DNA of 64,000 nt from Anaerolineae bacterium (lineage in GTDB: Bacteria > Chloroflexota > Anaerolineae > B4-G1 > SLSP01), in contig JAXGPC010000005.1 of NCBI GenBank assembly GCA_040767155.1, forward strand, positions 63,492-127,491. The letters run 5' to 3'. Shown here in pieces: positions 11,243 through 48,345 of this stretch. Positions within the stretch are counted from its first letter, which is position 1. Each line of letters starts with the position of its first letter. Both the position numbers and the translations under genes were made by a program. The notes below the pieces were generated by a model that made no database searches, was not told the DNA's origin, and was given only the letters and a program-made list of their open reading frames with translations.

Positions 11243-11243
11243 C

Positions 11244-29007: not shown

Positions 29008-29418
29008 ATGGCGTTGCCCAGATTGCTACTGGTTGAGAACGATCCGTACTACATCTACTTGCTCCGAATGTATGCGGAACAGAGTGGGTTTGCCGTTGTC
29101 GTGGCCAGTTCGGGGATGGGGGTTGAGGCACTGGCACAACGGGAGAAGCCCGTTGTCATTGTTCTGGAGTCAGACCTCCCCGAGGTGAGCGGTTGGGAGG
29201 TCCTTTCAAGGCTGCGCTCCGAGCCATGTACGCAGACAACACCGGTAGTGATCTGTCTGTGGCAAGACAGCGAACGAGGCTATGAGGTGCACTCAACGGA
29301 GTTCGTGCTTCACAAGCCGATGGAGTTCGACGACTTTGTCTATGCACTCAGCACTTTGGGCGTGCTGTCCGGCGACAATCTTGGGCGCCCGCACTATCCT
29401 GCGCCGGCAGATGCCTGA
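29008..29418 (+). CDS. stand-alone response-regulator receiver domain protein
   Basis: CheY-like fold: LLLVENDPY...[18 protein letters not shown]...HKP with a conserved phospho-acceptor Asp context. No output domain. First gene of the 18 kb same-strand cluster. Confidence 0.65.
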
Positions 29419-29477
29419 GGCGTTTGCCTGCGGTTGGAGCACAGCCAGCATCGCACGACCGTGATGAGGAAGAGTCT

Positions 29478-30530
29478 ATGACCAACATCCAGACCCGAGA
29501 ACCGGCGCAGTATCTCCTGGAAGTTAATAACCTGAGGAAGCATTTCCCCATCACCCGGGGCTTTTTCTCCACAAAGACAGTGGGATATGTCAAAGCGGTG
29601 GATGATGTGAGCTTCTTCATCCGTCCAGGAGAGACGTTGGGTCTGGTGGGAGAGAGTGGTTGCGGGAAGACGACCACTGGGCGCGTCATCATGCGCGCCT
29701 ATGAACCGACCGGGGGCGAGGTGTGGTTCGATGACCAGGATCTTGGGCGTATCAATGTCGCCGATCTGGATCGACATCAACTCAAGCAGATGCGACAGAA
29801 CATGCAGATGATCTTCCAGGACCCCTATTCGTCTCTTAACCCTCGCATGACGCTACTGCAGATCGTTGGCGAACCCCTCTACGTCAATGGAATCGCCAAA
29901 GGATCCGAACTGCAGGATCGTGTGGCGAATCTGCTCCGTGTCGTTGGGCTCCGGCCGGAGTATATGACACGCTATCCCCATGCATTCAGCGGTGGGCAGC
30001 GGCAGAGGATTGGCGTCGCGCGAGCTTTGGCGGTGAACCCACAGCTCGTGGTCTGCGATGAACCGGTCTCGGCGCTGGACGTCTCCATCCAGGCACAGAC
30101 GCTAAACCTGCTTCAGGACCTGCAAGAGGAGTTCAATCTTACGTACCTCTTCATCTCGCACGATCTGAGTGTCGTCGAGCATATCAGTGACCGTGTTGCC
30201 GTGATGTATGTCGGCAAGCTGGTGGAACACGCCGCGACCAGCGTGCTGTTCTGGCATCCCCTTCATCCTTACACCGAAGCCCTGCTGTCTGCGGTCCCGA
30301 AGCCTGACCCGCGCTTCAGAACGGAGCCTATCGTCCTGGAGGGGGATGTCGCTGATCCTGCTAACCCGCCCAGTGGCTGTTATTTCCATCCTCGCTGCCG
30401 CTATGCACAGCCCATCTGTTCCGAGGAAGCGCCTGTGCTACGGGAGTTGGAGAAAGATCACTTTGTGAGTTGTCACCGGGCTGAGGAGCTTCACCTGATG
30501 GGTGTCCTCGGGAGGGAAAACACTGCCTGA
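29478..30530 (+). CDS. Opp/Dpp-family ABC transporter ATP-binding protein, OppF/DppF-like
   Basis: Walker [10 protein letters not shown], signature LSGGQRQR, Walker [13 protein letters not shown] and an Opp C-terminal domain ([10 protein letters not shown]). Preferred start is ATG at 29478 after a GAGGAAG RBS. Confidence 0.85.
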
Positions 30531-30644
30531 GATCAGCGAAGGAGGTGCGTATTGCCAGATGCTGTGATTGACCCGCCTTGTGTGCGGGAGCTGTTGTGAA
30601 TTGGGCATCCGTTTCCTAGCATCAGTATCAGGAGGTTGTAATCG

Positions 30645-32726
30645 ATGAGTCAGCGACATAAGCTAACTCGGCGCCAGTTCCTGTACCTGTCCACTCTGGC
30701 AACTGCTGGTGCGGTTGCTTCGGCTTGTGGCGGACCTCTTACCCCGGAGGTAACCGAGCCGGAGCCGACCGCAGTGCCCGCGGAGCCTACGGCTGTGCCA
30801 CCTACGGCCAAGCCCGATGAGCCAGAAGCGACGGCGAAGCCCGCGGAACCCACAGCGGTACCGGAGCCCGTGAGCATGTACAAGGAAGCCCCGATGCTGG
30901 CAGCTCTGGTGGCATCGGGCGATCTTCCCCCGGTTGAGGAGCGCCTGCCCCTGAACCCGTACGTTGTCGATTGTCGTGAGTCCATTGGCAAGTACGGCGG
31001 GAACCTCCGCCGTGGCTTCAAGGGCGTCTCTGATCGCTGGGGACCCACGAAGCACGTCGACCGGACCCTCGTCTGGCTGGATCGCGACATGAATCTAATC
31101 CCCCGTCTCATCGAGAGCTGGGACGTCAGCGACGATGCCAAGACGTTCACGTTCCACCTGCGCAAGGGTCTCAAGTACTCCGATGGCGTGGAAATGACCA
31201 GCGCGGACTTCAAGTGGTATTACGAACACTATGCCGCGCATCCGGATCTCCAGCCGGGCTTGTGGACGAAGCTGACGACGGTTGGCGAGGATGGCAAGAA
31301 GGTTCTGTGTGAGGCAGAGTTCCCCGATGACTACACCGTCGTCTACAAGTTTGCGCATCCGAATCCCCTTCTGATGTACCAGGGGCTGCGCGAACTCCAT
31401 GGGTTCTCTATGCCTTCTCACTACATGAAGCAGTTCCACATTGACACAACGGATGACGTGGCCGCCCTCGAAACAGCCACCACGGAGGCCGGATTCAACG
31501 CCTGGAACGAGTACTTCGAAGACCGCCATTTGTTCCATCTGAATCCGGAGCACCCGTGGCCCACGCCGTGGATTGCCAAGAACTCGCTCAATGAGGAACT
31601 CTTCATGATGGAGCGAAACCCCTACTACTTTGGCGTCGATCCCGAAGGGAACCAACTCCCGTACCTCGATACGGTCACGCATCGCCTGTTCGAGGCCATC
31701 GATGTTTTCAACCTTTGGATCGTGAACGGGGAAATCGACTTCCACAACCGCCACGTCGCGCTTGCCAACTACAGCCTCTTCAAGGAGAACGAGGCCAACG
31801 GCGACTACAAAGTATTTGTGGGTGTCAGCGCCGGCCATGATGCGCTTCAACTCAACCTGGCGACCAAGGAGCCCAAGCTCAACGAGTTCTTCAACACGCG
31901 CGATGTCCGCATTGCCATCTCCCACGCCATCAATCGAGATGAGTACAACGACCTGATCTACGATGGCATGTGTACGCCGCGTCAGTACAGCCCGATCTCG
32001 CTGTCGGCCAACTACTATCCCAAGCTGTCAGAGGCCTACATCGACTACGATCCTGATCTGGCGAACCAGATGCTCGACGATGCGGGGTACGACCAGCGTG
32101 ACTCTGAAGGCTATCGGATGTTCAAAGATGGCAGCGGCCCAATCAGTTTCATCATCGAGGGCACGGCTGAGCCCGGTAGCAGTGGTGAGGATGGGGTACT
32201 GCTGATCGTGAAGTACCTGAACGATGTCGGCATCAAGGCGACTTGGAAGTACTTTGAGCGCTCGCTCTACACCGAGCACTATGAAGCCAATGAGATCGAG
32301 GCGGCGTGGTGGGGCGGTGACCGTACGGTGCTTCCATTGGCACCTTCGGCGATCATCTTCCGCGGTGTACAGCCTGACCGGCCATGGGCGGCCGGCTTCG
32401 GTCTGTGGTGGGAGGATGCTACCGATCCCAATGGTGTTGAGCCACCCGAGGGGCACTTCATCTGGAAGATCTGGGAAGCCTGGGACAAAGTTGCCGCGTC
32501 CCCGGACCCCGCGGATCAGAACAAGCACTTCCAGGAGCTCCTGGATATCTGGGCCGAGGAGTTGCCGATGATCGGTGTGGTGGGCGAGATGCCTGCCCCC
32601 ATCATTGTCAAGAACGGCTTCCACAACTACCTGCCAGGCCAGCCCATCGATGATACGTCTGGCGATGAGCACCTGCTGCAGACGGAGTCCTACTTCTGGG
32701 ACGATCCAGACGCGCACGCGGCCTAG
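30645..32726 (+). CDS. ABC transporter substrate-binding lipoprotein, SBP family 5 (peptide/oligosaccharide), with Tat-like signal and a Pro/Thr/Ala-rich linker
   Basis: N-terminal RRQFLYLSTLATAGAVASACGG (twin-Arg plus lipobox Cys), then a low-complexity linker (EPTAVPAEPTAVPPTAKPDEPEATAKPAEPTAVPEP), then a family-5 SBP fold. Length 693 aa. Confidence 0.85.
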   Translation: MSQRHKLTRRQFLYLSTLATAGAVASACGGPLTPEVTEPEPTAVPAEPTAVPPTAKPDEPEATAKPAEPTAVPEPVSMYKEAPMLAALVASGDLPPVEERLPLNPYVVDCRESIGKYGGNLRRGFKGVSDRWGPTKHVDRTLVWLDRDMNLIPRLIESWDVSDDAKTFTFHLRKGLKYSDGVEMTSADFKWYYEHYAAHPDLQPGLWTKLTTVGEDGKKVLCEAEFPDDYTVVYKFAHPNPLLMYQGLRELHGFSMPSHYMKQFHIDTTDDVAALETATTEAGFNAWNEYFEDRHLFHLNPEHPWPTPWIAKNSLNEELFMMERNPYYFGVDPEGNQLPYLDTVTHRLFEAIDVFNLWIVNGEIDFHNRHVALANYSLFKENEANGDYKVFVGVSAGHDALQLNLATKEPKLNEFFNTRDVRIAISHAINRDEYNDLIYDGMCTPRQYSPISLSANYYPKLSEAYIDYDPDLANQMLDDAGYDQRDSEGYRMFKDGSGPISFIIEGTAEPGSSGEDGVLLIVKYLNDVGIKATWKYFERSLYTEHYEANEIEAAWWGGDRTVLPLAPSAIIFRGVQPDRPWAAGFGLWWEDATDPNGVEPPEGHFIWKIWEAWDKVAASPDPADQNKHFQELLDIWAEELPMIGVVGEMPAPIIVKNGFHNYLPGQPIDDTSGDEHLLQTESYFWDDPDAHAA

Positions 32727-32925
32727 GGCACGTGCTTGTCGACTGTCGGGGGCGGGCTCTTGCACCCGCCCCCACTGGCAGCGTGCGGGATAAGTGATAA
32801 GGGACAAGAGATAAGGGGCAAGGAACAGGGGAGGCGATGAGAGGCCCAGGCTATGCCTTGAACTTCTCTTTGCCACTCCCTTATCCCCTATCCCTTCTCA
32901 CCTATATGAGGGCAGGAGGACGCGA

Positions 32926-33915
32926 ATGCTGAAGTACATACTCAAGCGGATCGCGATCATGATTCCCACGCTAATCATGATCTCGATGATCTCGTTTGCG
33001 ATCATTCAATTGCCGCCCGGGGACTACCTTACCTCCTATGTGGCCGGGCTGCGCCAGATGGGTGATAACGTGGATGAGACCGAGATCGAGGCGCTCCGAC
33101 AGCGGTATGGGCTCGGCCAGCCGGTCTATGTTCAGTACTATAAGTGGGTCTCCGGAATAATCCTGCGGGGTGACTGGGGTCAGTCCATGGAGTGGCGCAA
33201 ACCGGTCAAGGACCTCATCTGGGAGCGGATGGCCCTGACAGTGGCGCTGTCCCTGGTCTCGGTTCTGGTGAGTTGGTTCGTGGCGATTCCCGTCGGGGTG
33301 TTTTCGGCGACCCATCAGTACTCACTGCCGGACTACGTCTTCTCGGCCCTGAGCTTCATTGGCGCGGGCTTGCCGGGTTTCATGATCGCTTTGGTGGTCA
33401 TGTGGGTGGCAATGCGCCAACTGGGACTCAATGTGGGTGGGCTCTTCTCACAGGAATACCTGGTGGCACCCTGGAGCTGGCCCAAGTTCGTAGACCTCCT
33501 CAAACACCTCTGGATCCCTGTACTCATTGTCGCACTGGGGAGCACGGCGGGCAGCATTCGTACGACGCGTGCCAACGTGCTGGATGAACTCAACAAACCC
33601 TATGTCGAGACGGCCCGTGCCAAGGGACTGAAGGAGCGGAAGTTGGTTTGGAAGTATCCGGTGCGCGTGGCGATGAACCCCTTCTTTAGCACGGTGGGCT
33701 GGACGTTGGCCAATCTCATTTCCGGTCAGACGTTGGTGGCCTATGTGCTCAGTCTGCAGACAACGGGACCGATGATGCTGCGTGCCCTGACATCGCAGGA
33801 TATGTATCTGGCAGGCAGTTTTCTATTGCTGCTGAGCACGCTCACGGTTATTGGCACGCTGATATCGGACATTCTGCTGGCGTGGTTCGACCCCCGCATT
33901 CGGGTGGAGGGCTAG
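32926..33915 (+). CDS. ABC transporter permease, DppB/OppB-like
   Basis: Six TM segments and the EAA-like motif region (ARAKGLKERKLVWKYPVRVAMNP) of binding-protein-dependent permeases. Confidence 0.85.
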   Translation: MLKYILKRIAIMIPTLIMISMISFAIIQLPPGDYLTSYVAGLRQMGDNVDETEIEALRQRYGLGQPVYVQYYKWVSGIILRGDWGQSMEWRKPVKDLIWERMALTVALSLVSVLVSWFVAIPVGVFSATHQYSLPDYVFSALSFIGAGLPGFMIALVVMWVAMRQLGLNVGGLFSQEYLVAPWSWPKFVDLLKHLWIPVLIVALGSTAGSIRTTRANVLDELNKPYVETARAKGLKERKLVWKYPVRVAMNPFFSTVGWTLANLISGQTLVAYVLSLQTTGPMMLRALTSQDMYLAGSFLLLLSTLTVIGTLISDILLAWFDPRIRVEG

Positions 33916-33918
33916 AAG

Positions 33919-35103
33919 ATGACAACCTCACCACGAGGTATCCCCGAGGAAGTGCGTGACCGGCAGGCGCTGGATAGAAGTCTTGAGGAAGAGGCCGCTG
34001 GCTTACAGGAGGAACGGCTCTATGTCGCCAGCCAATGGCAGTTGATGTGGTGGAAGTTCCGCAGACACAAGCTGGCAATGGCTGGAGGCGTCATCCTGAT
34101 CATCTTCTACCTGGTAGCCATCTTTGCGGAGTTTGTCGCGCCCTATGATCCCGAGGCCTACTTCGCCCGGTACAAACTGGCGCCGCCGACGCCCATCCGC
34201 ATCATCGATACCGAGGGTAACCTGCACCGCCCCTTCATCTACCAACGCGACCGCGTACGCAATGAAGAGACGCTGCGCTACTACTACATTGACGACATCA
34301 CGATCCTTCATCCCGTCAGGTTCTTCGTAAAGGGAACTCCCTACAAGCTCTGGGGACTCTTCGAAACCGACGTGCACCTTTTCGGCGTTGAGGCGGCCCG
34401 GGAGGAGCAGGGCGTGTTCCTGGCTGGTGCGGACCGGCTGGGGCGCGATGTGTTCTCACGACTTTGCTATGGCGCGCGGATCTCCCTTTCGATCGGTCTC
34501 ATTGGCGTTTTGTTGAGCCTGTTCCTGGGGATCATCTTGGGTGGGATCTCAGGATACTATGGCGGACGGATCGACACGATCATCCAGCGGGTGATCGAGT
34601 TCGTGCGCACGATTCCGAACATTCCATTGTGGATGGCGTTGAGTGCCGCTTTGCCCGCAGACTGGCCGGTAGTCCGACTCTACTTTGGCATCACCATCAT
34701 TCTCTCACTTATCGGGTGGACCGGGATGGCGCGGGTAGTTCGAGGGCGTTTCCTGGCGCTCCGCAATGAGGACTTTGTCCTGGCGGCGCGGCTCTGCGGC
34801 TCCAGTGAGATCCGCATCATCCTGCGGCACATGGTGCCTTCGTTCTTGAGTCATATCATTGCGAGCCTCACTATCGCGATACCTGGTACGATTCTCGGCG
34901 AGACAGGCTTGAGCTTCATCGGTCTGGGTCTGCGTGCTCCAGCGATCAGTTGGGGGGTTTTGCTACAGGAGGCCCAGAACGTCCGTTCGCTGGCACAGGC
35001 GCCTTGGGTCTTTGCCCCCGCTTTCGCCGTCGTGCTGACCGTGTTCGCTTTCAACTTCCTGGGCGACGGGCTTCGGGACGCGGCGGACCCGTACGCCCGT
35101 TAG
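33919..35103 (+). CDS. ABC transporter permease, DppC/OppC-like, with extended N-terminus
   Basis: OppC-type motifs (LGRDVFSRLCYGARISLSIGL...) and C-terminal TM bundle. It starts 4 nt after the previous gene. Confidence 0.85.
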   Translation: MTTSPRGIPEEVRDRQALDRSLEEEAAGLQEERLYVASQWQLMWWKFRRHKLAMAGGVILIIFYLVAIFAEFVAPYDPEAYFARYKLAPPTPIRIIDTEGNLHRPFIYQRDRVRNEETLRYYYIDDITILHPVRFFVKGTPYKLWGLFETDVHLFGVEAAREEQGVFLAGADRLGRDVFSRLCYGARISLSIGLIGVLLSLFLGIILGGISGYYGGRIDTIIQRVIEFVRTIPNIPLWMALSAALPADWPVVRLYFGITIILSLIGWTGMARVVRGRFLALRNEDFVLAARLCGSSEIRIILRHMVPSFLSHIIASLTIAIPGTILGETGLSFIGLGLRAPAISWGVLLQEAQNVRSLAQAPWVFAPAFAVVLTVFAFNFLGDGLRDAADPYAR

Positions 35104-35119
35104 TGATAGGAGCACATCA

Positions 35120-36154
35120 GTGGACAGTAATGACCTGCTCGTAGAAGTAAAGAACCTGCAGACCTACTTCTTCCTCGATGAGGGTACGGTTCGTGCGGTG
35201 GACGGCTGCGATTTCGATATCCATAGAGGCGAAGTCCTGGGTGTTGTGGGGGAGAGCGGCTGTGGGAAAAGCGTCACTGCACGGTCGATTATCAGAATTG
35301 TGGCCAAGCCGGGTCGTATTGTGGGCGGGCAGATTCTCTACCACCGGCGTCCAAATGGCAGCGGGCATGGAGAGGTGATCGATCTGACGAAGCTTCCGCC
35401 GCAAGGGGATGAGATGCGCCACATCCGCGGTGGTGAGATCTCGATGGTTTTTCAGGAGCCGATGACGTCTCTTAGTCCGGTTCACACAATTGGCAATCAG
35501 ATTGTTGAGGGCATTGTGCTACACCAGAACGTGGGCCCGGAGGAGGCGCGCGCGCGGGCAATCGAAATGCTGGACTTTGTGGGCATGCCATTCCCCAGCC
35601 GCACCATCGATCAGTTCTCGTACGAACTCAGCGGCGGGATGCGCCAACGCGCGATGATCGCTATGGCTCTCTCCTGCAACCCCAGCCTCCTGATCGCTGA
35701 TGAGCCCACGACGGCTCTCGATGTGACGACCGAAGCTCAGATTCTCACACTTATGCGCCGCTTGCAGTATGAGTTGGGAATGGCGATTATGTACATCACC
35801 CACAACCTGGGCGTAGTCGCACAGATGGCCGAGAATGTGGTTGTGATGTACATGGGAAAGATCGTGGAACAGGCCGATGTCGACACGATCTTCCACAAGC
35901 CACTGCATCCGTACACGCGGGCGCTGCTGCATTCCATCCCGCGTCTGGGAACCAAGACTGCAGAGCGGCGACGCCTCGCCTCCATCAGAGGGATGGTACC
36001 TGATCCCTACGCGCTCCCCAGAGGTTGTGCGTTTCACCCGCGGTGCAGTGACATGAGACCCGGCATGTGTGACGAGGTTGAGCCGCCCATGGTTGAGGTG
36101 GAGCCGGGACACAAGGTTCGCTGCCATCAGATTGCCGAACTACCCCAACCATGA
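35120..36154 (+). CDS. Opp/Dpp-family ABC transporter ATP-binding protein, OppD/DppD-like
   Basis: Walker A GESGCGKS, signature LSGGMRQR, Walker [13 protein letters not shown] and C-terminal CAFHPRC motif. Confidence 0.85.
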
Positions 36155-36157
36155 GAT

Positions 36158-37885: not shown

Positions 37886-37958
37886 TGGGGCACGAAGACT
37901 GTGTGTAGGAGGCTAAGGCGGAGGTCTCTCGCTGCCTCCAGCTTATCGAGGTAGCCCG

Positions 37959-38411
37959 ATGCGAAGATTGGCAGACCAGATTGCCGTGTTCCTGGCCTGG
38001 GCCGTGGCTACGGCTCTCGGCTTCTGGGCCATGGTGGTGGTCAGGCAGGCTCTGATGTCAAGCCTGGCGGTGCACTATGTGGGGGATTCGGTACGGCGTG
38101 GCTGGGTCGCCCGTTTCTGGGGTCAGGCCTATTACGCGATCGCCGGGCTGGTCTACCTCATCTTCATCTTTGTCGTCGATGGCTATCTCAAGGATGGCAG
38201 GCCGAAGCGCGATGTGTTCCGACGATTTTGCGCCGTGGTTGGTGGTGAGCTTCTGATCATTTTCGTTGCCGATGTCGTGACGTCATGGGTGCAGAGTACT
38301 ATGCTTGGACACCTAAGTCGCATCCTGATACCGGTTGAGGGGATCATAGGCGTCACAATGGTGGTCTATGCGCGACTGCACAGGGCTGCGAACCAGCGGA
38401 TAAGCAAATAA
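37959..38411 (+). CDS. small integral membrane protein, about 4 TM, hypothetical
   Basis: Hydrophobic segments (IAVFLAWAVATALGFWAMVVV; YYAIAGLVYLIFIFVV; VVGGELLIIFVADVV; IIGVTMVVYA). Sits inside the same-strand cluster. Confidence 0.4.
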   Translation: MRRLADQIAVFLAWAVATALGFWAMVVVRQALMSSLAVHYVGDSVRRGWVARFWGQAYYAIAGLVYLIFIFVVDGYLKDGRPKRDVFRRFCAVVGGELLIIFVADVVTSWVQSTMLGHLSRILIPVEGIIGVTMVVYARLHRAANQRISK

Positions 38412-38487
38412 GCGCCGGGGCACAGAGCCGCCCGAGCTTGTCCTCCATTTATCAAGAACCTTCCTCTCCAGAAGGAGAACTACCGTC

Positions 38488-41061: not shown

Positions 41062-41082
41062 TCAATCCAGGAGGTTTCTCAC

Positions 41083-42240
41083 ATGGCAAAGACAGGCGTA
41101 GGTGCACGTTGGGAATCGGAATTGTCCGTCCACCAGGACCCGAAGAGCGGGGCCACGGTCCACCAGTTGACAGCCTATAAGGGCCATAGTAGCCACTTCT
41201 ACTTCACATATCCGTGCTGGTATGACAAGGGCAGAAAGATCGTGTTCACCTCCGATCGCGAGAACCGGACGAACCTGTTTGGCGTTGACCTGGAGAGCGG
41301 CGAAATTACCCAGCTCACGGATTTTGACTCTGCGGAGGGAGGTGTCGGTGGTCTGAGCAAGAACCCGGTACGAGAGGAGATCTACTTCCACCGTGGTAGG
41401 GTCTTGACAGCGCTCGACCTGACGACGCTGGAGCAGCGTCCGATCTATACGCGCCCTGAAGGCTACGTGGGTGGCAGTTCGAATGCGACGGCTGACGGCA
41501 AGACCATCTGTGTGGGACACTACAAGGATCTCTCGGATCGCTTTATGATCGATCTGGGTCACGGCTACGTTGGTTTCCGCGAGATCTGGGAAGCCCATCC
41601 GCCCTCAACGATCTTGAAGATCCCGGTCGAGGGCGGCACCCCTGAGGTGATCTATCAGGAGGATTATTGGTTGGGGCACTTCAACTGCTCGGGTAAGCAC
41701 CCCAACATTATGACCTTCTGTCACGAGGGACCGTGGACACTGGTAGAGAATCGGATCTGGGGCCTTGACCTCAATACGGGTGAAGCTTGGCAGATCCGCC
41801 CCAATGCGCCTGGCGAGGCGATCGGGCACGAGTACTGGATGAGCGATGGCGAGCACATCGGTTACCACGGCACCACGCCGCAGGGGCCGGTCTACGGCGC
41901 GATCCGTTACGACAACACCGATCAAGTCGAGGCACCCTTTGAGGGGCATTGCTGGCATTTTCACAGCCATATGCTTGAGCTGGTGGTCGGTGACGGCGAT
42001 GCCAAGGATCCGTATCTGCTGCTGTGGCGCTTTCACGAGGGGGCGTTCGAAGGGCCAAAGGTCCTCGTCTGGCACCGCGGCTCTTTCCATACACAGCGGG
42101 TCCACCTCCACCCTTGCTTCAACAGCGAGGGGACGCAGGTGATCTATACGGCTGACCCACAGGGGTATGGGCAGGTCTTTGCTGTAGATGTGCCGGCGTG
42201 GGAGACGCTTCCTGACTTGGCCGATGTGAAGGCGAGGTGA
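41083..42240 (+). CDS. ogl: oligogalacturonide lyase (PL22 family, Ogl-like beta-propeller)
   Basis: Aligns with enterobacterial Ogl: TFCHEGPWTLVENRIW vs AFCHEGPHDLVDARMW; LELVVGDGDA vs TLLVGDGADA; HLHPCFNSEGTQVIYTAD vs HPHPSFTPDDKQVLFTSD. 385 aa, cytoplasmic. Confidence 0.8.
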   Translation: MAKTGVGARWESELSVHQDPKSGATVHQLTAYKGHSSHFYFTYPCWYDKGRKIVFTSDRENRTNLFGVDLESGEITQLTDFDSAEGGVGGLSKNPVREEIYFHRGRVLTALDLTTLEQRPIYTRPEGYVGGSSNATADGKTICVGHYKDLSDRFMIDLGHGYVGFREIWEAHPPSTILKIPVEGGTPEVIYQEDYWLGHFNCSGKHPNIMTFCHEGPWTLVENRIWGLDLNTGEAWQIRPNAPGEAIGHEYWMSDGEHIGYHGTTPQGPVYGAIRYDNTDQVEAPFEGHCWHFHSHMLELVVGDGDAKDPYLLLWRFHEGAFEGPKVLVWHRGSFHTQRVHLHPCFNSEGTQVIYTADPQGYGQVFAVDVPAWETLPDLADVKAR

Positions 42241-42247
42241 TATGATG

Positions 42248-42278
42248 CGGGGCGGCGCTGCGGGTGAGCGCCGCCCCG
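42248..42278 (+). other. perfect GC-rich stem-loop between ogl and the downstream paralog gene
   Basis: GGGGCGGCGC-tgcgggtga-GCGCCGCCCC, a 10-11 bp perfect stem with a 9-nt loop and no U-tract. Candidate intercistronic RNA processing/stability element or attenuator. Confidence 0.4.
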
Positions 42279-42308
42279 ACGCTATCACCAACTGACACAG
42301 AGGCATTC

Positions 42309-44237
42309 ATGCAGGACGAGTTCTGGCGTGAGCCGCGCTTCACCTTCGAAGAGCGGCGGCAGCAGTATCTGGCGTATTGTGCAGCGCAGTCGCCGGGTGG
42401 GCGAATTGGTTTCTTCAGCCAGATTGCTCGGCTCGAGTTGGGGCAGCCTGTGGATGAGGGGCCAATTCGCGAAGCGTTGGCCTTTGTCGACTCCAGGAAG
42501 GACTGTGTTGACTTCACGATCGCAGGTCTGCTGCGGATTATCTACCGTTATGATCAGAGCCCAAACATCGCCACGGGCCTGATTGCTGACATCGAGACCT
42601 GTCTGCTTGGGTTCAAGTACTGGTGGGACGAGCCGGGCGATAACAGGCGTTGTTATCACACGGAGAACCACCAGATTCTCTTCCACTCCGACGAGCTGTT
42701 GTTGGGACAGCGGCTAAGGGACCGCACCTTCACCAACGATGGCCGGAACTGGCGGGCGCATATGGCGCACGGGCTGCGCCTCACACGTCGCTGGCTCGAC
42801 CACCGGGCGCGCTTCGGCTATAGTGAGTGGCTGTCCAACTGCTACTTCGAGGAGGACCTTCTCGCTCTGCTCAACCTCTACGACTTCGCTGAGGATGAGG
42901 GGGTTCGGCGTCAAGCAAAGGCGCAGATCGATGTCCTGCTCTTTGAGATGGCATTGCACACGTATCGCGGGATCTTCGGTGCGACCCATGGCCGCACCTA
43001 CCCCCGCCTGATCAAGGGTGCCCGTGGCGAGGCAACAGCCTCGACGACCAAACTCATCTTCGGGATGGGCCACTTCAACGATCCAAGTGCCCTCGGGGCC
43101 GTCTCTCTTGCTGCGAGCTCCTATCGTTGTCCACCTATCCTTCAGAGGATTGCGGCAGATCTGGACCGCCCCATGGTGTTCCGGGAGCGCCACAGCCTCA
43201 ATCTGGAGGATGCCCCGGCTTTTGGCATTGCCTATGACAGCCTTGAAGATGGTGGCTTGTTCTGGAGTGTCCAGGACTGTATGTGCCCGGCGGTCCTTCC
43301 CCTGGCGGACTACATGGCTGTCTTGCAGGGGGTCTATGTCTATGACAATTCTCAAGAGATCTATGACGGAGCCTTTGCCTGGCAGATCGAGGAACACGGT
43401 GAGGTGGTGGATCTTGATGTCGATCGTCACGCACTCACTGAGGTGCACATCCAGACCTACCGCACGCCAGACTATCTGCTGAGCTGTGCTCAGGACTACC
43501 GCGCCGGCAAGCCCGGCTACCAACAACACATCTGGCAGGCAACGCTGGACCTCGATGCCGTGGTCTTCACCAGCCACCCTGGCTCTGACGATGAGACCTC
43601 TCGTCCCAACTACTGGGCCGGAAATGGGGTTATGCCACGTGCCGCCCAGCACGAGAACGTCCTGGTCTGTATCTACCACCTGCCGTCCAGGGACGCCTTC
43701 CCTTTCAGCCATGCCTACTTCCCCACTGAAGCGTTCGACGAGGTTGTGGAATGCTCCCCGTGGATCTTCGGTCGCAAGGGCGATGGATACGTCGCCTTGT
43801 TCTCCCAACACCCCTGGCATTGGGTCGGTGCCGGTGATACGCCGCGCACCGATCTGCGCGTAGACGCCGTAGACAATGTCTGGCTCGTTGAGATGGGACG
43901 CAAGCGCACAGGCGAGCACGGAGGGGATTGGGATAGCTTTGACGCGTTTATCCGTGCCATCGCTGCAAGTCCCGTGTCGTGCGACGGATTGTCAGTCAGT
44001 TACGTTTCCCCTTCCCGGGGAGAGGTACGTTTCGGTTGGCATGGCCCGCTGATGGTGCGGCGACAGCAAGTCGCGCTCCGGAGTGATTTGCGATACGACA
44101 ATCCCTACTGCCGCTGTCTGGCCCCGCGCGGCTCTTCCCCGGGGAATGGTCAAGCGACCGATGGGTTGGCGTTCACCGTCCGGCGCGGCGATGACGTCCT
44201 CGATATCGATCTTCAGCTTCTAGCTCCGCCACGCTAA
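42309..44237 (+). CDS. paralog A of an uncharacterised large cytoplasmic protein family (about 640 aa; possible heparinase II/III-like lyase, unverified)
   Basis: Preferred start is ATG 42309 (MQDEFWREPRFTFEERRQQYLAYCA), which aligns with the paralog B start MEDIYWDSPQATYEERRLQYLALCA. The ORF-track GTG at 42264 lies inside the upstream hairpin. Shared motifs along the full length: KYWWDEP, CYHTENHQI, FGYSEWLSNCYFEEDL, ALHTYRG and YHLP...FPFSHAYFPT. Confidence 0.7.
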   Translation: MQDEFWREPRFTFEERRQQYLAYCAAQSPGGRIGFFSQIARLELGQPVDEGPIREALAFVDSRKDCVDFTIAGLLRIIYRYDQSPNIATGLIADIETCLLGFKYWWDEPGDNRRCYHTENHQILFHSDELLLGQRLRDRTFTNDGRNWRAHMAHGLRLTRRWLDHRARFGYSEWLSNCYFEEDLLALLNLYDFAEDEGVRRQAKAQIDVLLFEMALHTYRGIFGATHGRTYPRLIKGARGEATASTTKLIFGMGHFNDPSALGAVSLAASSYRCPPILQRIAADLDRPMVFRERHSLNLEDAPAFGIAYDSLEDGGLFWSVQDCMCPAVLPLADYMAVLQGVYVYDNSQEIYDGAFAWQIEEHGEVVDLDVDRHALTEVHIQTYRTPDYLLSCAQDYRAGKPGYQQHIWQATLDLDAVVFTSHPGSDDETSRPNYWAGNGVMPRAAQHENVLVCIYHLPSRDAFPFSHAYFPTEAFDEVVECSPWIFGRKGDGYVALFSQHPWHWVGAGDTPRTDLRVDAVDNVWLVEMGRKRTGEHGGDWDSFDAFIRAIAASPVSCDGLSVSYVSPSRGEVRFGWHGPLMVRRQQVALRSDLRYDNPYCRCLAPRGSSPGNGQATDGLAFTVRRGDDVLDIDLQLLAPPR

Positions 44238-44255
44238 ACATAAAGGAGAGCTTCT

Positions 44256-46178
44256 ATGGAGGATATCTACTGGGACAGCCCGCAAGCGACGTATGAGGAA
44301 CGCCGGCTGCAATATCTGGCGCTCTGTGCGACCGAGCCGGTGCCACAGCGGGGCCCGGGCCGCAGGATAGGGTGTTTTGGCCAGATCGCGCGCCTTGAGC
44401 TCGGGCTGCCGGCAAGTGAAGGACCGCTCCGCGATGCCATAGCCTATGCTGACTCGCGCGAGGACTGCTGTGACTTTGCCGTCGGGGGGCTGCTCCGCAT
44501 TCTCTATCTCTACGATGACAGCCCCAACCTTGCGTCAGACCTGGTCGCCGATATCGAGGCGTGCCTCTTGCGCTTCAAGTACTGGTGGGACGAACCCCTG
44601 GGCGACAATGATCGCTGCTATCATACTGAGAACCACCAGATCATCTTCCATGCTGATGAGCTTCTTGCGGGTCAGCGCTTCAAAGGGCAGGTCTTCTCGA
44701 ATAGCGGGCAGACTGGAAGCTACCATGTAGACCATGCGCTACACTTCATCCGGCGCTGGCTTGATTTCCGCGAGCGCTTCGGCTACAGCGAGTGGCTCTC
44801 CAACTGCTACTTCGAGGAAGACCTGCAAGCCCTGGTGAACCTTCACGACTTTGCCGAAGACCCGGAAATCCGCCGGCGGGCCAGGGCGCAGATCGACGTG
44901 ATCCTCTTTGAGATGGCGCTGCATACGTACCGCGGGGTCTTTGGCTCCACGCATGGGCGGAGCTATGCCTTCCTGCTCAAGGGCGGGCGTCACGAAGGCT
45001 CGGCCTCGACGGTAAAGTTGATGTTTGGTATGGGCCTCTTCAACCACGCCAGCCAGGGGACCGTGTCCCTGGCGACAAGCACATACCGCTGTCCGCCGCT
45101 CATCGCCGAGATTGCCGCCGACCTCGACGAACCACTCCTGGCCCGGGAGCGGCATAGCCTGAACATGGAGGATGCGCCGGCCTGGGGGCTCTCCTACACC
45201 GACCCTGAGGATGGTCACCTTTACTGGAGCGTCCAGGATTACACGCATCCCGCGATCTATGACCTGGCACAGGAGACCCGGCGGCTGCGACAGATCATGC
45301 TCTACGAGGACTATCAGGCACGCTATGACCAGATCCTGCAGTGGCAAGTCGATGAGTCCGGCGAGGTCGTCGACCAGGACATCGATTGCCATGCGATGAC
45401 AGAGGTGCATATTCAGACTTATCGCACCCCGTCCTATATGTTGAGCTGCGCTCAGGACTATCGGCCTGGCAAGCCGGGCTACCAACAGCATCCCTGGCAG
45501 GCGACGCTGGGCATCGATGCTGTCGTTTTCACGAATCATCCCGGTGCTGCAGACGAGATCTCGCGCCCCAACTACTGGGCTGGGAATGGCATCTTGCCCC
45601 GCGCCGCGCAACACGAGAACATACTGGTTTGCCTCTACCATCTCCCTGCCAACGACGCCTTCCCCTTCTCACACGCTTACTACCCGACCGGCGCGTTCGA
45701 TGAGGTGCTGGAGCGCGAGCAATGGGTGTTCGGGCGAAAGGGGCATGGGTATATCGCACTCTATACACAGCATCCGGGGTATTGGCTTCCCGATGGTGAT
45801 CAGCCACGGGTGGAACTGCGTGTGGAAGCCCCGGACAACATCTGGCTTGTCGAGATGGGACAGCAGTCGGCGTGGGGTAGTTTTGAGGCGTTCGTCGAGG
45901 CGATCGCCTCGAGCCCTGTGAAGTGCGAAGGTCTGTCGCTGCGGTATGTCTCACCGTCTCAAGGCGAGGTGACCTTCGGCTGGCGGGGCCCGCTACGGGT
46001 TGGGGGCAATGAAGCCCCACTCAGAAGCAATCTGCGCTATGATAATCCCTATTGCCAGTGGGCGCCGCCATTTCCCGGCGAATCCCCGGACGAGGACCGT
46101 GACCAGAGGGTGCTTTCAATCCGGCGTGGCGATGCGGTGCATCGCATCGACTTTGCGTATCGCGGAGACGTAGGCTAA
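44256..46178 (+). CDS. paralog B of the same family (640 aa), tandem duplicate of 42309-44237
   Basis: Roughly 60-70% identical by eye to paralog A over the whole length. AAAGGAGAG RBS upstream. Confidence 0.7.
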   Translation: MEDIYWDSPQATYEERRLQYLALCATEPVPQRGPGRRIGCFGQIARLELGLPASEGPLRDAIAYADSREDCCDFAVGGLLRILYLYDDSPNLASDLVADIEACLLRFKYWWDEPLGDNDRCYHTENHQIIFHADELLAGQRFKGQVFSNSGQTGSYHVDHALHFIRRWLDFRERFGYSEWLSNCYFEEDLQALVNLHDFAEDPEIRRRARAQIDVILFEMALHTYRGVFGSTHGRSYAFLLKGGRHEGSASTVKLMFGMGLFNHASQGTVSLATSTYRCPPLIAEIAADLDEPLLARERHSLNMEDAPAWGLSYTDPEDGHLYWSVQDYTHPAIYDLAQETRRLRQIMLYEDYQARYDQILQWQVDESGEVVDQDIDCHAMTEVHIQTYRTPSYMLSCAQDYRPGKPGYQQHPWQATLGIDAVVFTNHPGAADEISRPNYWAGNGILPRAAQHENILVCLYHLPANDAFPFSHAYYPTGAFDEVLEREQWVFGRKGHGYIALYTQHPGYWLPDGDQPRVELRVEAPDNIWLVEMGQQSAWGSFEAFVEAIASSPVKCEGLSLRYVSPSQGEVTFGWRGPLRVGGNEAPLRSNLRYDNPYCQWAPPFPGESPDEDRDQRVLSIRRGDAVHRIDFAYRGDVG

Positions 46179-46202
46179 CGGCGGAAGGACTGCGATCGTT
46201 CG

Positions 46203-47225
46203 ATGCTATCGACTCGTGCTCCACTCCTCGAGGTAAAGGATCTCAAGACCTACTTCCAGATGGAAGGCGGGACCATTCACGCTGTCGATGGCGCCAGTCT
46301 CACGATGCACGTTGGAGAGACCGTGGGGGTCGTAGGAGAGAGCGGATGTGGTAAGTCCGTGATGGCACTGTCGATCCTCGGGATTGTGCCCTCGCCTGGC
46401 AGGATTGTGGGAGGGCGGATTCGCTTCTATCGCGGTGCGGGCGAGGGTGGTGAGCCGGTCGAGCTTTCGGCGCTGGACCCCAAGGGCGACATGATGCGCG
46501 CCATTCGTGGGCTCGACATTGCCATGATCTTCCAGGAGCCGACGTCCGCGCTCAGTCCCGTGTATACGATCGGGCAGCAGATCGTCGAGGCGCTTCGCCT
46601 TCACCGTGATCTCTCACGCGCTCAGGCCCGCCAGCAGGTTGTCGAGATGCTCGGTAAGGTTGGCCTGCCCGACCCGGAGCGTACGATCGACCGCTATCCC
46701 CACCAACTCAGCGGTGGTATGTGCCAGCGCGCCATGATCGCGATGGCACTTTGCAGCTATCCCGATCTCTTGATTGCCGATGAGCCGACCACGGCGCTGG
46801 ACGTGACGACTGAGGCACAGATCCTGCACCTGATGCGTTCGTTGCAGGAGGAATTCGGCATGGCGATCATGTTCATCACCCACAACCTGGGGGTCATCGC
46901 GCAGATGGCGGACCGCGTGGTTGTGATGTACCTGGGAGAGGTGGTAGAAGAGGCGCGCGTCTACGACATCTTCTACCACCCCTTCCACCCCTATACCCAG
47001 GCGTTGTTGAACGCCATTCCCCGGTTGGGACGCAAGGGCACCACGACACCCAGGCGTAAGCTGGCCGAGATTCGCGGCGGTGTTCCCGATGCCTATTCGA
47101 TTCCCCGTGGATGTCGATTCCACCCACGATGCGTCCATATGCGTCCAGGGCTTTGCGACACCGATCGCCCCCCTTACGTCACTCCTGACCCGGAGCACTC
47201 CGTCCGCTGTGTGTTGTACCGTTGA
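46203..47225 (+). CDS. second Opp/Dpp-family ABC ATP-binding protein, OppD-like; extra copy at the end of the cluster
   Basis: Walker [29 protein letters not shown] and CRFHPRC. Similar to 35120-36154 ([11 protein letters not shown]... vs [12 protein letters not shown]...). Confidence 0.8.
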
Positions 47226-47280
47226 TGCGGGTGCGCAAGCAAGGCTGGGACCTTATTGGTCCCTGATCCTCGGGCACCCG

Positions 47281-48345
47281 TCACGATGCCCAGGAGAACC
47301 CGGGCCCCTGAGGGATGGGAGCGCACCCATCGGTGAGGGCGAAGGGCGAGTCTTTCCCGATAAGCCCCGTCTCCAGATAGATCGCGTTGGGCAGGCTGGC
47401 CATGACGTTGAGCTGGACAGGGCCACCACCGTGTGAGGCGTAAGGGCGCCGGAACGCAGCCGCCGTCGTCCCAATCTGCAGCATTGCAGTCGGTCCACCG
47501 GCGCGACGCAGGTCGGGTTGGATGATGTCGACGGCATCGCGCCGCAGGAAGCGCGCAAAGTCGGCCCGCGTGTAGAGGTTCTCCCCTGTCGCGACGGGAA
47601 TATCGAGTGCCTGAACCAGTGCCGCGTAGCCGTCGATGTCATCGGCGGCGATGGGCTCTTCCCACCAGAGGCATCCCAGTTCCTGGAAAGCCCGTCCGCG
47701 TCGGATGGCCTCAGCCGTCGAAAGCGACTGGTTAGCGTCGACCATGAGGTCAACGCTGTCACCGATGGCTTTGCGAACTGCTTCGACGCGGGCGATGTCC
47801 TCTTTGAGAGTCGCCGCGCCTACTTTGATCTTCACCCCGCGAAACCCCTGAGCGACTGCCATCGACGCGATGTCGGTGAGGGTGTCGAGGCCATAGTTGA
47901 GCCAGCCCACCATAGCATAGGCGGGGATCTGCGTGTGCACGCCTCCCCAGAGCTGCCAGCAGGGCACGCCCAGCGCCTTTCCCTGGCAATCCCACAGCGC
48001 TGTGTCGATCGCAGCGATGCCGAAGGTCGCCAACCCTGCGGTGCCGTGGTACTCAGTCTCGCGGACCATCGCCTCGTGGGTGGCTGCGACGAATGCTGGG
48101 TCGGTCCCGACAACCAGCGGCTCGAGTTCGTGCTTGATGAGCGCTGCGAGAGCATCCGGGCCACCGCCAATGCGACCGAAACTCGCGTCGCCGCTCCCCC
48201 AGATCGTGGCACCGTGATGGGTTGCGTCAGTGTGCAGTGTTACGCGCACCGATCCGGCGCCTGGCAGGCTCTGAAGGGCATCCCGGATAGGGTTCGGATT
48301 GGGGGTTTGGTGTGTGACCGTGATCTCCATGCGGGTGATTTTCAC
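47281..48345 (-). CDS. enolase-superfamily enzyme (mandelate racemase / muconate lactonizing enzyme family; probable acid-sugar dehydratase or cycloisomerase)
   Basis: MR/MLE fold motifs: KIKVGA...DANQS...WWEEP...ATGENL, the metal-ligand D/E/D pattern. 354 aa. Encoded divergently at the end of the uronate cluster. Confidence 0.8.
   Translation of the reverse strand: MKITRMEITVTHQTPNPNPIRDALQSLPGAGSVRVTLHTDATHHGATIWGSGDASFGRIGGGPDALAALIKHELEPLVVGTDPAFVAATHEAMVRETEYHGTAGLATFGIAAIDTALWDCQGKALGVPCWQLWGGVHTQIPAYAMVGWLNYGLDTLTDIASMAVAQGFRGVKIKVGAATLKEDIARVEAVRKAIGDSVDLMVDANQSLSTAEAIRRGRAFQELGCLWWEEPIAADDIDGYAALVQALDIPVATGENLYTRADFARFLRRDAVDIIQPDLRRAGGPTAMLQIGTTAAAFRRPYASHGGGPVQLNVMASLPNAIYLETGLIGKDSPFALTDGCAPIPQGPGFSWAS

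Follow-up and report, generated by a model that had tools for sequence, protein, structure and literature searches.

The gene cluster lying in the 64,000-nucleotide stretch of Anaerolineae DNA analysed here (the window) most probably serves to take up an acidic sugar chain and to degrade it in the cytoplasm. Taking the steps proposed below together, we favour, with somewhat better than even confidence, a locus under regulatory control that catabolises an acidic oligosaccharide containing uronates. The locus comprises the following features:

25007-28795, plus strand: hybrid sensor/regulator of 1262 aa (Pfam: LacI-type effector-binding domain, HisKA, HATPase, REC, AraC HTH)
29008-29418, plus strand: stand-alone receiver (REC) of 136 aa (PF00072, 43.4 bits)
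29424-30530, plus strand: OppF-type ABC ATPase (ABC_tran and oligo_HPY)
30645-32726, plus strand: family-5 solute-binding lipoprotein (SBP) of 693 aa (SBP_bac_5, 8.9e-54; TAT signal)
32748-32773, plus strand: GC-rich hairpin with a 9-bp stem (GGGGGCGGG/CCCGCCCCC), directly 3′ of the SBP gene
32926-33915, plus strand: OppB-type permease (BPD_transp_1 and BPD_transp_1_N)
33919-35103, plus strand: OppC-type permease (OppC_N and BPD_transp_1)
35120-36154, plus strand: OppD-type ABC ATPase (ABC_tran and oligo_HPY)
36158-37885, plus strand: B12-binding radical SAM enzyme (rSAM) of 575 aa (B12-binding and Radical_SAM Pfam domains)
37959-38411, plus strand: 150-aa small membrane protein, about four hydrophobic segments
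38488-41061, plus strand: 857-aa paralog (jelly roll and Ig-like N-terminus, then a toroid and beta-sandwich resembling heparinase III)
41083-42240, plus strand: PL22-type oligogalacturonate-lyase-like beta-propeller of 385 aa, cytoplasmic (PF14583)
42264-44237, plus strand: 657-aa family member, a candidate lyase that keeps all invariant residues
44256-46178, plus strand: 640-aa family member, a candidate lyase that keeps all invariant residues
46203-47225, plus strand: second OppD-type ATPase (ABC_tran and oligo_HPY)
47281-48345, minus strand: MR/MLE (enolase-superfamily) protein, acid-sugar dehydratase-like or cycloisomerase-like (MR_MLE_N and MR_MLE_C, 6.9e-58)

The 13 plus-strand genes from 29008 to 47225 are tightly packed, with intergenic gaps of 3-199 nt, and an earlier note on this DNA had described these consecutive genes; their coordinates were confirmed, and Pfam bears out the family assignments that it gave. 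That note let the cluster begin at the orphan REC gene, but the true start of the unit is at 25007, with the hybrid sensor gene, which is kept upstream of the cluster and is followed by the REC gene in L014, L017, L018, L046 and L062. It also called the enolase-superfamily gene divergent, whereas this gene is convergent with the operon, tail to tail. The comparison of synteny that it had suggested revealed the same gene order in at least seven MAG or metagenome loci, with rSAM identities of 56-92%, and in dozens more metagenome contigs. Because the same order recurs in these loci, the arrangement is not due to chance, and the cluster is conserved in Anaerolineae (Chloroflexi) bacteria.

The three large proteins of the cluster are members of one unnamed and very widespread family, which numbers about 3,657 representatives at the 50% identity level. 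Two of them, of 657 and 640 aa, are 63% identical, and the 857-aa protein is a third paralog whose N-terminus combines a GH2-N/CBM/PA14-like jelly roll with an Ig-like domain. The earlier note had left the large proteins unexplained and had listed the 857-aa protein apart from the other two, missing both their paralogy and its loss of invariant residues. The family has no Pfam, NCBIfam or PDB match, even when a 31-sequence profile is used at E values up to 10. At the level of structure, the AlphaFold models match only toroid-plus-beta-sandwich uronate lyases (PL8, 12, 15, 17, 21, 33 and 35) and DS-epimerase, the top 16 Foldseek matches all belonging to one clan with a probability of about 1 for the best, and the same is true of the last 500 residues of the 857-aa protein. 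The predicted domain order, with the (alpha/alpha) toroid at the N-terminus and an antiparallel beta-sandwich after it, is that of PL12 heparinase III, PL15 Atu3025, PL17 Alg17c, PL21 heparinase II, PL33 BT4410, PL35, PL8 and DS-epimerase 1. Unlike them, the 640-aa proteins contain some 70 additional residues as an insertion (roughly 300-370) and one window paralog bears GH2-N/CBM-like N-terminal domains. Moreover, the family lacks detectable sequence similarity to clan members or to Pfam Hepar_II_III_N/C (hhalign against one Hepar_II_III protein gave a probability of 0.1), and this absence of a sequence-level link to any PL family weighs against our reading.

The conserved residues may point in the same direction as the fold. 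In PL33, the key catalytic Asn238 and Tyr291 lie 53 residues apart in the toroid and act with His444, and the clan as a whole displays a conserved dyad of Tyr and His topped by a second Tyr, the beta domain holding a structural metal (PMC11848413). In the family, N126/H127 are separated from Y185 by 58-59 residues and are invariant in all 31 close members as well as in divergent representatives, while the beta domain contains an invariant His-x-Tyr pair, H473/Y475. A toroid Asn(-His) and Tyr about 55-59 residues apart, together with the His and Tyr of the beta domain, would thus correspond to the clan pattern; this putative catalytic-residue mapping relies on spacing and conservation, not on superposition, which we count against our reading. 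Both the 657-aa and the 640-aa protein retain the whole Asn-His...Tyr set, as do four proteins in which the family domain is fused, in either order, to the unsaturated-uronyl hydrolase domain GH88 (PF07470; P0362, P0406, P0409 and P0417). These fusions suggest unsaturated uronides as pathway intermediates. Clan lyases classically partner with GH88. None of the cluster enzymes has a signal peptide or membrane segment, and the clan likewise includes cytoplasmic exo-acting members (PL15, PL17). Based on fold, residue pattern and GH88 fusions, we propose that the 657-aa and 640-aa proteins would cut the chain in the cytoplasm by beta-elimination at uronate residues.

The window 857-aa protein is probably inactive as a lyase, because its invariant toroid residues (the Asn, the Tyr and neighbouring residues) are all replaced. 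Its orthologs are intact in L017-L070 where they are linked to the rSAM gene, and degenerate in the window, L008 and L012-L015; an intact paralog accompanies the degenerate protein in L008, L012, L014 and L015, and not in L013. This distribution would fit a scenario in which the 857-aa protein of distant genomes is an intact enzyme, the core of a module with Opp and the B12-rSAM and often with the small membrane protein. In the window lineage, it has probably been retained, with its CBM-like N-terminus, in a binding or scaffolding role, the short intact paralogs having presumably taken over catalysis.

The earlier note's identification of an Ogl (PL22) gene was borne out at the level of the family. 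The protein scores 115.9 bits against Pectate_lyase22 (PF14583; gathering score 30), with a match covering 12-383 of 386, and it is a distant match to characterised Ogl (5e-29 and 3.7e-30 with 3pe7 and 3c5m, respectively). In the phmmer alignment, R217, H242, H287, Q350, H353 and H355 of 3pe7 are all identical. These we take to be the metal-binding His/His/His/Gln and the catalytic His and Arg of YeOGL, the roles reportedly assigned by Abbott and co-workers in 2010. Loci with close homologs of this gene also hold GH88, GH67, GH28, Hepar_II_III and KdgF-sized cupin genes, and homologs are also found beside GDPD, sulfatase and GH88 genes, settings that do not point to pectin. By homology, the propeller would finish the breakdown by splitting short (unsaturated) uronides into monomers. 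The proposed route resembles the enterobacterial oligogalacturonide pathway of Dickeya and Yersinia (TogMNAB or KdgT uptake, cytoplasmic Ogl/PL22, KduI, KduD, KdgK, KdgA) in combining ABC import of acidic oligosaccharides with cytoplasmic PL22 beta-elimination. It differs in its host, a monoderm member of the Chloroflexi, and in its Opp-type transporter, which uses a family-5 SBP instead of the CUT1 TogB. Furthermore, kduI, kduD and kdgK are not found nearby, and the locus has, in addition, an MR/MLE gene, a B12-rSAM and three lyase-like paralogs of the toroid type.

For uptake, the cluster encodes a complete Opp/Dpp importer set, with a family-5 SBP, OppB, OppC and two oligo_HPY ATPases, and a third ATPase gene besides. 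The OppD-type ATPases at 35120 and 46203 are 62% identical, and the second is found in L012-L014 and absent in L008. The SBP carries a TAT signal (TIGR01409, 19.1 bits with the cutoff at 16.7) in a sequence, RRQFL...ASAC, whose Cys fits a lipobox, followed by a Pro/Thr/Ala/Glu-rich linker. Its nearest solved structures are 5IPW of T. maritima (2e-102), annotated as a putative oligopeptide binder without a known ligand, SPH1118 (5.8e-58) and an alpha-galactoside binder (3.6e-22), so that its closest solved relatives with a known ligand, SPH1118 (pectin) and the alpha-galactoside binder, are sugar binders. The earlier note had named clustering of the SBP and transporter with peptide-specific systems, combined with a lack of induction by uronate polymers, as an outcome that would speak against its reading; scores against the NCBIfam peptide equivalogs, as against those for nickel and opine, all fell far under cutoff. 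SPH1118 of Sphingomonas sp. A1 binds pectin oligosaccharides, not peptides, and salt-bridges oligogalacturonide through two arginines (PMC9314435). The window SBP is homologous to SPH1118 and 5IPW over its full length. Like SPH1118 and the SBPs of the Thermotoga Opp-type oligosaccharide transporters, it is of the family-5 "oligopeptide" type and would bind sugars instead of peptides, and it differs from them as a Tat-exported lipoprotein on a long Pro/Thr/Ala/Glu-rich tether. Arg57 and Arg438 of SPH1118 are replaced by Lys and Pro, which counts against our reading. The earlier proposal that the cluster imports and degrades an unsaturated uronate oligosaccharide is partly supported. The cytoplasmic breakdown of a carbohydrate, more precisely an acidic (uronate) glycan, draws support from the uronate-lyase folds, the GH88 fusions, the Ogl residues, the sugar-binding SBP relatives and the carbohydrate genes of syntenic loci and of loci with PL22-like homologs. 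No such support was obtained for an imported chain that is already unsaturated or pectin-derived, the two arginines being replaced, 5IPW lacking a known ligand and the Ogl match being distant. The components being in place, we suggest that the tethered SBP catches an oligosaccharide outside the cell and the Opp-type ABC transporter imports it, a substrate class read from these relatives.

These arginines also bear on an explanation that we regard as unlikely, if worth weighing, in which the cluster does serve glycan utilisation, and the unnamed family consists of hydrolases, C5-epimerases or enzymes of another toroid activity, with a PL22-like protein of different activity and a substrate that is perhaps not a uronate, possibly a neutral or phosphodiester-linked glycan such as microbial cell-wall remains. 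The clan fold indeed serves epimerases too (DS-epi1), and the neighbourhoods of stand-alone family members in other genomes were uninformative; both count against our reading. Syntenic loci add GH43-like, PcRGLX/GH127-like and GH4 genes, and syntenic or related loci also GFO/IDH/MocA, cupin, LacI regulator, GDPD and URO-D genes, of which the GH43-like, GH4, GH127-like, GDPD and GFO/IDH/MocA genes would suit such a substrate. So would the lack of kdu and uxa genes, which were not found among the window ORFs of at least 200 aa, in agreement with the earlier note; the absence of kduI, kduD, uxa, kdgK, eda and GH88 from the window weighs against a uronate pathway. What argues for uronate lyases nonetheless is that the top structural matches are all two-domain uronate lyases or an epimerase with the same domain order, that the Asn-His...Tyr spacing agrees with the lyase apparatus, that the GH88 fusions imply unsaturated uronide intermediates, that all checked Ogl residues are present in the PL22-like protein, and that related loci contain KdgF-sized cupins.

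The rSAM enzyme has both domains of class B (PF02310, 40.9 bits; PF04055, 55.8 bits) and a Cys triad, C313-x4-C318-x2-C321, invariant in 7 of 7 homologs, Cx4Cx2C instead of the common Cx3Cx2C. It reaches no NCBIfam cutoff, in line with the earlier note, which had left it unexplained; the best matches are the RiPP C-methyltransferases TIGR03975 (1.8e-32, 112.6 bits against 281.85) and ApyD (8.8e-30). A class-B rSAM is not known to act in uronate catabolism, which counts against our reading. Among metagenome homologs of at least 47% identity, an Opp gene lies directly upstream in 27 of 31, and the 857-aa family is present in all 14 loci with long flanks, so that this subfamily is restricted to Opp and lyase-like clusters in nearly every locus; relatives at 33-37% identity occur in another context, as tandem rSAM pairs. 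The 3-, 73- and 76-nt gaps around the gene contain no plausible precursor-size ORF, and the cluster has no protease, exporter or immunity gene. A RiPP biosynthetic cluster of the TIGR03975 type was rejected on the score, the missing adjacent precursor ORF and the lack of a protease or exporter.

A related possibility is that a peptide or glycopeptide is what the Opp system takes up, the rSAM being a RiPP-type peptide modifier and the carbohydrate genes processing an attached glycan or being passengers. It draws on the RiPP methyltransferases as best matches, on the Opp/Dpp family of the transporter with its putative oligopeptide binder as closest solved SBP, and on a 26%-identical rSAM homolog in a typical RiPP-type cluster that also encodes SPASM rSAMs, an M16 peptidase and an exporter of the ABC-2 type (one annotated neighbourhood, which we count against our reading). 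We consider it very unlikely, in view of scores far under the family cutoffs (112 versus 282 bits), the missing precursor, protease, exporter and immunity genes, the company that the subfamily keeps, the pectin-oligosaccharide ligands of SPH1118 and the LacI sugar-effector domain of the sensor. The window enzyme shares with the RiPP C-methyltransferase group the N-terminal B12-binding domain and radical SAM core, and with the RiPP-cluster homolog the Cys triad, but it lies in a sugar-catabolic operon. Alternatively, the rSAM could be the maturase of a co-encoded protein, most likely the 857-aa one, supplying a catalytic group in place of the lost residues, as anSME does on sulfatases or the methyltransferases on MCR. 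The conserved order of the rSAM, small membrane protein and 857-aa genes, the peptide and protein targets of the rSAM's relatives and the lack of canonical residues in the window 857-aa protein would all fit; however, the expected correlation is absent, as rSAM-linked 857-aa orthologs beyond the window's close relatives all keep the full residue set and the degenerate P0333 (L018) has no rSAM within 10 kb, and we give this idea hardly any credence. Within the uronate-catabolic reading, the B12-rSAM truly belongs to the conserved module, and our best guess is that it would act on the sugar substrate, not on a peptide, by radical chemistry of a methyl-related or rearranging kind. The 150-aa membrane protein matches no Pfam or NCBIfam family, and its placement just ahead of the 857-aa gene is conserved, with homologs or analogs in L012-L015, L017 and L018.

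The regulatory genes suggest that the locus responds to sugar. The N-terminal domain of the hybrid sensor matches LacI-family effector domains (best 4.7e-27), and, because no hydrophobic or membrane segment is predicted in its 1262 aa, the protein is probably cytoplasmic. As in Bacteroides HTCS (e.g., of the fructose-sensing BT1754 type), a sugar-binding PBP-fold domain, histidine kinase, receiver and AraC domain are joined in one polypeptide that adjoins a glycan-utilisation operon. In contrast to HTCS, the window protein has neither membrane segments nor a signal peptide, its sensor domain is LacI-repressor-effector-like, and an extra stand-alone REC protein follows it. Intracellular sensing is probable because the sensor domain resembles the effector domains of LacI repressors, and the hybrid sensor and stand-alone REC would turn the operon on upon the appearance of an intracellular sugar product.

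At the other end of the locus, the MR/MLE gene, syntenic in L008, L012 and L013, encodes a protein that stays below equivalog level (best L-talarate/galactarate dehydratase, TalGalacDh, 193.9 bits against a cutoff of 500) and whose nearest solved structures are 2ovl, 3,6-anhydro-L-galactonate cycloisomerase and TalrD/GalrD; it might act downstream on a sugar-acid product. Finally, the hairpin 3′ of the SBP gene folds at -28.9 kcal/mol (z = -3.4) with no T-run after it, and may be an intra-operon mRNA-stabilising or attenuating element.

The ORF list and the Pfam/NCBIfam scans bear out the 13 consecutive plus-strand genes described in the earlier note, which lie at 29008-47225 in operon-like packing, with intergenic gaps of 3-199 nt. 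These genes, with the sensor and MR/MLE genes, are:

25007-28795: hybrid sensor of 1262 aa with LacI-type Peripla_BP_3, HisKA, HATPase, REC and AraC HTH domains (Pfam)
from 29008, plus strand: in order, REC, OppF-type ATPase, family-5 solute-binding lipoprotein (SBP), OppB, OppC, OppD-type ATPase
to 47225, plus strand: in order, B12-binding radical SAM protein (rSAM), 150-aa protein, 857-aa protein, PL22-type protein, 657-aa protein, 640-aa protein, second OppD-type ATPase
47281-48345, minus strand: MR/MLE gene, tail to tail with the operon

The 150-aa protein has about four hydrophobic segments. Sequence analysis detected neither a signal peptide nor a membrane segment in any of the cluster enzymes, which are predicted to be cytoplasmic. 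A promoter/terminator scan of the cluster returned sites no more numerous than in shuffled sequence. Housekeeping genes (LeuRS, pyruvate kinase, helicases, ThyX, LexA) flank the cluster, and the window ORFs of 200 aa or more include no kdu or uxa gene, as had been noticed before.

The 857-, 657- and 640-aa proteins (38488-41061, 42264-44237 and 44256-46178, respectively) are three paralogs of one unnamed family: the 657- and 640-aa proteins share 63% identity, and the 857-aa protein is homologous to both over its C-terminal ~480 residues (40% identity over 258 residues, 29% over 242). A word-indexed search gave at least 938 homologs, all annotated as “hypothetical,” without Pfam domain and mostly from Anaerolineae. 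Searching 1.84 billion representatives (clusters at 50% identity) with a profile gave 3,657 matches at E <=1e-3, 1,114 of them at E <=1e-30, so that the family comprises at least 3,657 representative clusters. Neither the 640-aa sequence nor a 31-sequence profile had a usable match among PDB chains and Pfam families, and hhalign of the family profile with one Hepar_II_III protein, from locus L007, gave a probability of 0.1, the single-sequence template being too thin for a real test. The gene neighborhoods of two stand-alone homologs of the 640-aa protein (P0022 and P0104) held nothing informative. The fold class comes from AlphaFold modeling of the 640-aa protein (pLDDT 86, pTM 0.91). The model has a helical toroid at the N terminus and a beta-sandwich at the C terminus, and Foldseek independently ranked heparinase III, PL35 GAGases, DS-epi1, PL33 BT4410 and PL15 Atu3025 at the top, with a probability of about 1.

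Conserved residues are numbered here as in the 640-aa protein. In the toroid, E125-N126-H127, E179, Y185, R235 and Y237 are invariant or nearly so, divergent multidomain representatives included, while H132, N183 and H233 are invariant in close members and variable in some divergent representatives. In the beta domain, R449, H473 and D482 are invariant or nearly so across the family, and Y475 is nearly so. PL12, 15, 17, 21, 33, 39 and DS-epi1 have this toroid-plus-sandwich fold in common, together with a conserved dyad of Tyr and His that has a second Tyr above it and a structural metal bound by the beta domain, and the key catalytic residues of PL33 are Asn238 (charge stabilizer), Tyr291 and His444, with a spacing of 53 between Asn238 and Tyr291 (PMC11848413). 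The corresponding spacing of N126 and Y185 is 59 residues, and the family pattern therefore appears to fit a PL33-type lyase apparatus, a match drawn from spacing and conservation rather than from superposition. In addition, of eight long family members scanned, four (P0362, P0406, P0409 and P0417) carry a fused GH88 unsaturated-uronyl-hydrolase domain at the N or C terminus and retain the Asn-His...Tyr set. Because GH88 enzymes act on the products of lyases, no other functional clue points as strongly to beta-elimination of uronides. The family is probably a new, or at least unrecognized, lyase family, and at least 3,657 clusters of “hypothetical proteins” gain a testable function as probable cytoplasmic uronate lyases. 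Anaerolineae abound in digesters, sediments and mats and are believed to feed on complex organic remains, and most of their glycan-degrading machinery is unannotated. Should the family prove to be a new PL family, the annotation of carbohydrate enzymes in Chloroflexi metagenomes would change noticeably.

In the 857-aa protein of the window, nearly the entire toroid set is replaced: ENH is changed to DPH, H132 to A, E179 to A, N183 to D, Y185 to A, and H233/R235/Y237 to R/T/S, and the beta-domain set is retained. This is also true of the 857-aa orthologs of L008 and L012-L015, which are syntenic MAG loci, whereas all rSAM-linked orthologs of the more distant loci (L017-L070) have an intact residue set, so that the window copy looks like a lineage-specific pseudo-enzyme. 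The clusters of L008, L012, L014 and L015 each also contain an intact paralog, of the 640/657-aa type or, in L014, of 875 aa. We read this pattern, which is one of residue conservation and loss, as a probable paralogous replacement, in which the ancestral core enzyme would have degenerated to a protein that probably serves in binding or as a scaffold, its chemistry being taken over by the short paralogs; it offers a clear example from nature of a degenerate copy kept next to putatively active paralogs. L013 is an exception: no intact 640-aa paralog was found there, and its PL22-like ORF (L013:9663-10607) looks truncated, being just 314 aa long with a weak Pfam match, so this locus may be decaying or its assembly may be faulty. 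Close relatives also differ in gene content, since the second OppD-type ATPase (46203-47225) and the 657-aa paralog are both absent from L008, which has only a 44-aa ORF at that place and a PL22-like protein 95% identical to that of the window; this difference is a recent gain or loss inside the cluster.

The order SBP, OppB, OppC, OppD, rSAM, 150-aa and 857-aa protein, followed by variable genes, is repeated in Anaerolineae and Thermoflexales MAGs (L008/9, L012-L015) and is found again in the distant Chloroflexi loci L017 and L019, where the 857-aa protein is ~42% identical. L018 has the core genes without rSAM, and a 159-aa “membrane protein” called in L019 proved to be the split N terminus of its rSAM. 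A metagenome scan yielded at least 512 relatives of the rSAM; 80 were kept, 57 of which are at least 47% identical. Among these 57, an Opp gene ends at most 1.5 kb upstream of the rSAM in 27 of 31 loci with enough upstream sequence, and the 857-aa family lies downstream in 17 of 24 with enough downstream sequence. Where 8 kb are available on both sides (n = 14), the 857-aa family is present in all 14, a PL22-like gene in 5 and a gene best matching the 640/657-aa proteins in 4. Relatives at 33-37% identity (L076, L078-L099) mostly consist of two rSAM genes in tandem, lack Opp and lyase-like neighbors and presumably belong to a different system. The genetic link of the rSAM to sugar import and cleavage is tight and repeated. 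To our knowledge, no known uronate pathway includes a class-B rSAM, and a genetic link between a B12-rSAM and sugar import or cleavage is not predicted by known pathways; literature searches turned up no paper that links radical SAM enzymes to oligogalacturonate lyase, PLs or GHs.

The rSAM (36158-37885) scores under every NCBIfam cutoff. Its Cys triad, CYHGKCAFC at residues 313-321, has the spacing Cx4Cx2C, the usual radical SAM triad being Cx3Cx2C, and is invariant in six syntenic homologs as well as in a 26%-identical homolog. With its B12 and rSAM domains and this invariant triad, the protein looks functional. The 26%-identical homolog sits in a textbook RiPP cluster. We rejected a RiPP-type role as the main explanation: there is no precursor-size ORF beside the rSAM and no protease or exporter in the cluster, and the protein scores below cutoff. 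We also rejected the idea that the rSAM makes good the lost residues of the 857-aa protein, since its rSAM-linked orthologs elsewhere are intact.

The accessory families of the rSAM/Opp loci are GH4, PcRGLX/GH127-like, GH43-like, GDPD-like, RidA, cupins, LacI regulators, aldo-keto reductase, Amidohydro_2 and GFO/IDH/MocA. A URO-D-like gene is present in four of these loci, in one of them (L028:10155-11330) directly downstream of the rSAM, and URO-D genes are also present in the PL22-like loci L006 and L007. The URO-D family includes corrinoid methyltransferases, and we treat methyl chemistry on sugars as a lead, not as evidence. In the most far-reaching reading, the 640/657/857-aa proteins would form a new and very widespread PL family (several thousand clusters, mostly in Chloroflexi) and the rSAM would be the first class-B rSAM with a catabolic glycan role; for example, it might act on a methyl group or other decoration that stands in the way of beta-elimination, by removing or rearranging it. 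We consider the two together rather unlikely; if true, they would point to anaerobic degradation of a decorated acidic glycan by a route that no known pathway covers.

The PL22-like protein is above the Pfam threshold and aligns end to end with the characterized oligogalacturonate lyase YeOGL (3pe7) and a Vibrio homolog (3c5m). R217, H242, H287, Q350, H353 and H355 are identical in this alignment; these are reportedly (Abbott et al. 2010) the Mn ligands, the catalytic base and a stabilizing Arg. Homologs of the PL22-like protein number more than 1,400, most of them in Anaerolineae, and a literature search on PL22 together with Anaerolineae gave survey papers only. The homologs have as neighbors GH88, GH67, GH4 and GH2 in L006, Hepar_II_III, GH28 and a beta-helix protein in L007, and sulfatase, GDPD, PcRGLX-like and SDR genes in L010; these contexts are carbohydrate, but not classical pectin. 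GDPD-domain proteins of ~480-494 aa, with an unannotated N-terminal half, recur beside the PL22-like gene or in rSAM/Opp loci (L006, L010, L021 and related loci), a possible sign that phosphodiester links occur in the natural substrate, as they do in teichoic-type polymers.

At its N terminus the SBP has the sequence MSQRHKLTRRQFLYLSTLATAGAVASAC, in which a Tat motif precedes a lipobox Cys; a Pro/Thr/Ala/Glu-rich tether comes next, and the protein matches TIGR01409 (Tat signal) above cutoff. The tether, at residues about 30-75 of the gene product (30645-32726), opens the mature protein and is of low complexity with PEPTAVP-like repeats; such tethers are typical of lipoprotein SBPs in bacteria without outer membrane. 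Among solved structures, the SBP is closest to T. maritima 5IPW (2e-102), which has no ligand assigned, to the Sphingomonas sp. A1 protein SPH1118 (5.8e-58) and to an alpha-galactoside binder. SPH1118 binds unsaturated trigalacturonate, not peptides (PMC9314435). Peptide, nickel and opine binders proper score much lower, and the SBP probably does not group with the peptide-specific systems that the earlier note had named as the counter-case. Arg57 and Arg438 of SPH1118 align with Lys and Pro in the window SBP, and for this reason we did not adopt the view that it binds oligogalacturonides as SPH1118 does. Just 3′ of the SBP stop codon, within the operon, lies a perfect 9-bp GC hairpin (32748-32773; -28.9 kcal/mol, z = -3.4; no T-run), which may favor expression of the SBP over that of the permeases.

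The import and breakdown of a uronate oligosaccharide, as originally proposed, are supported in outline by the fold, the GH88 fusions and the Ogl residues, but the specifics, an unsaturated and pectin-like substrate, are not supported. We propose that an acidic oligosaccharide would be imported by the Opp-type transporter, that the 657- and 640-aa proteins would cleave the imported chain by beta-elimination, and that the PL22-like enzyme would carry out a finishing step and the MR/MLE enzyme process the sugar acid, the 857-aa protein having a putative non-catalytic role. Induction would pass through the LacI-domain hybrid kinase. The gene of this 1262-aa sensor accompanies the cluster in distant genomes and is therefore part of the unit; its sensor domain matches the effector domains of LacI repressors, and no membrane segment was found in the protein, which looks cytoplasmic, suggesting that the inducer is an intracellular breakdown product.

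Outside the cluster, a 406-aa protein (49521-50741) joins PF00924, the beta domain of mechanosensitive channels, to PF02195, the ParB N-terminal domain, an unusual pairing that is conserved in L008. Three adjoining minus-strand genes at 7086-13016 (743, 640 and 590 aa) each encode a Helicase_C_3 domain, the last being an XPB/ERCC3-type helicase, and may form a repair or defense module. The leucyl-tRNA synthetase ORF (15548-18685) encodes 1045 aa, bacterial LeuRS being typically shorter, and its catalytic-domain match is broken into three stretches, which suggests insertions.
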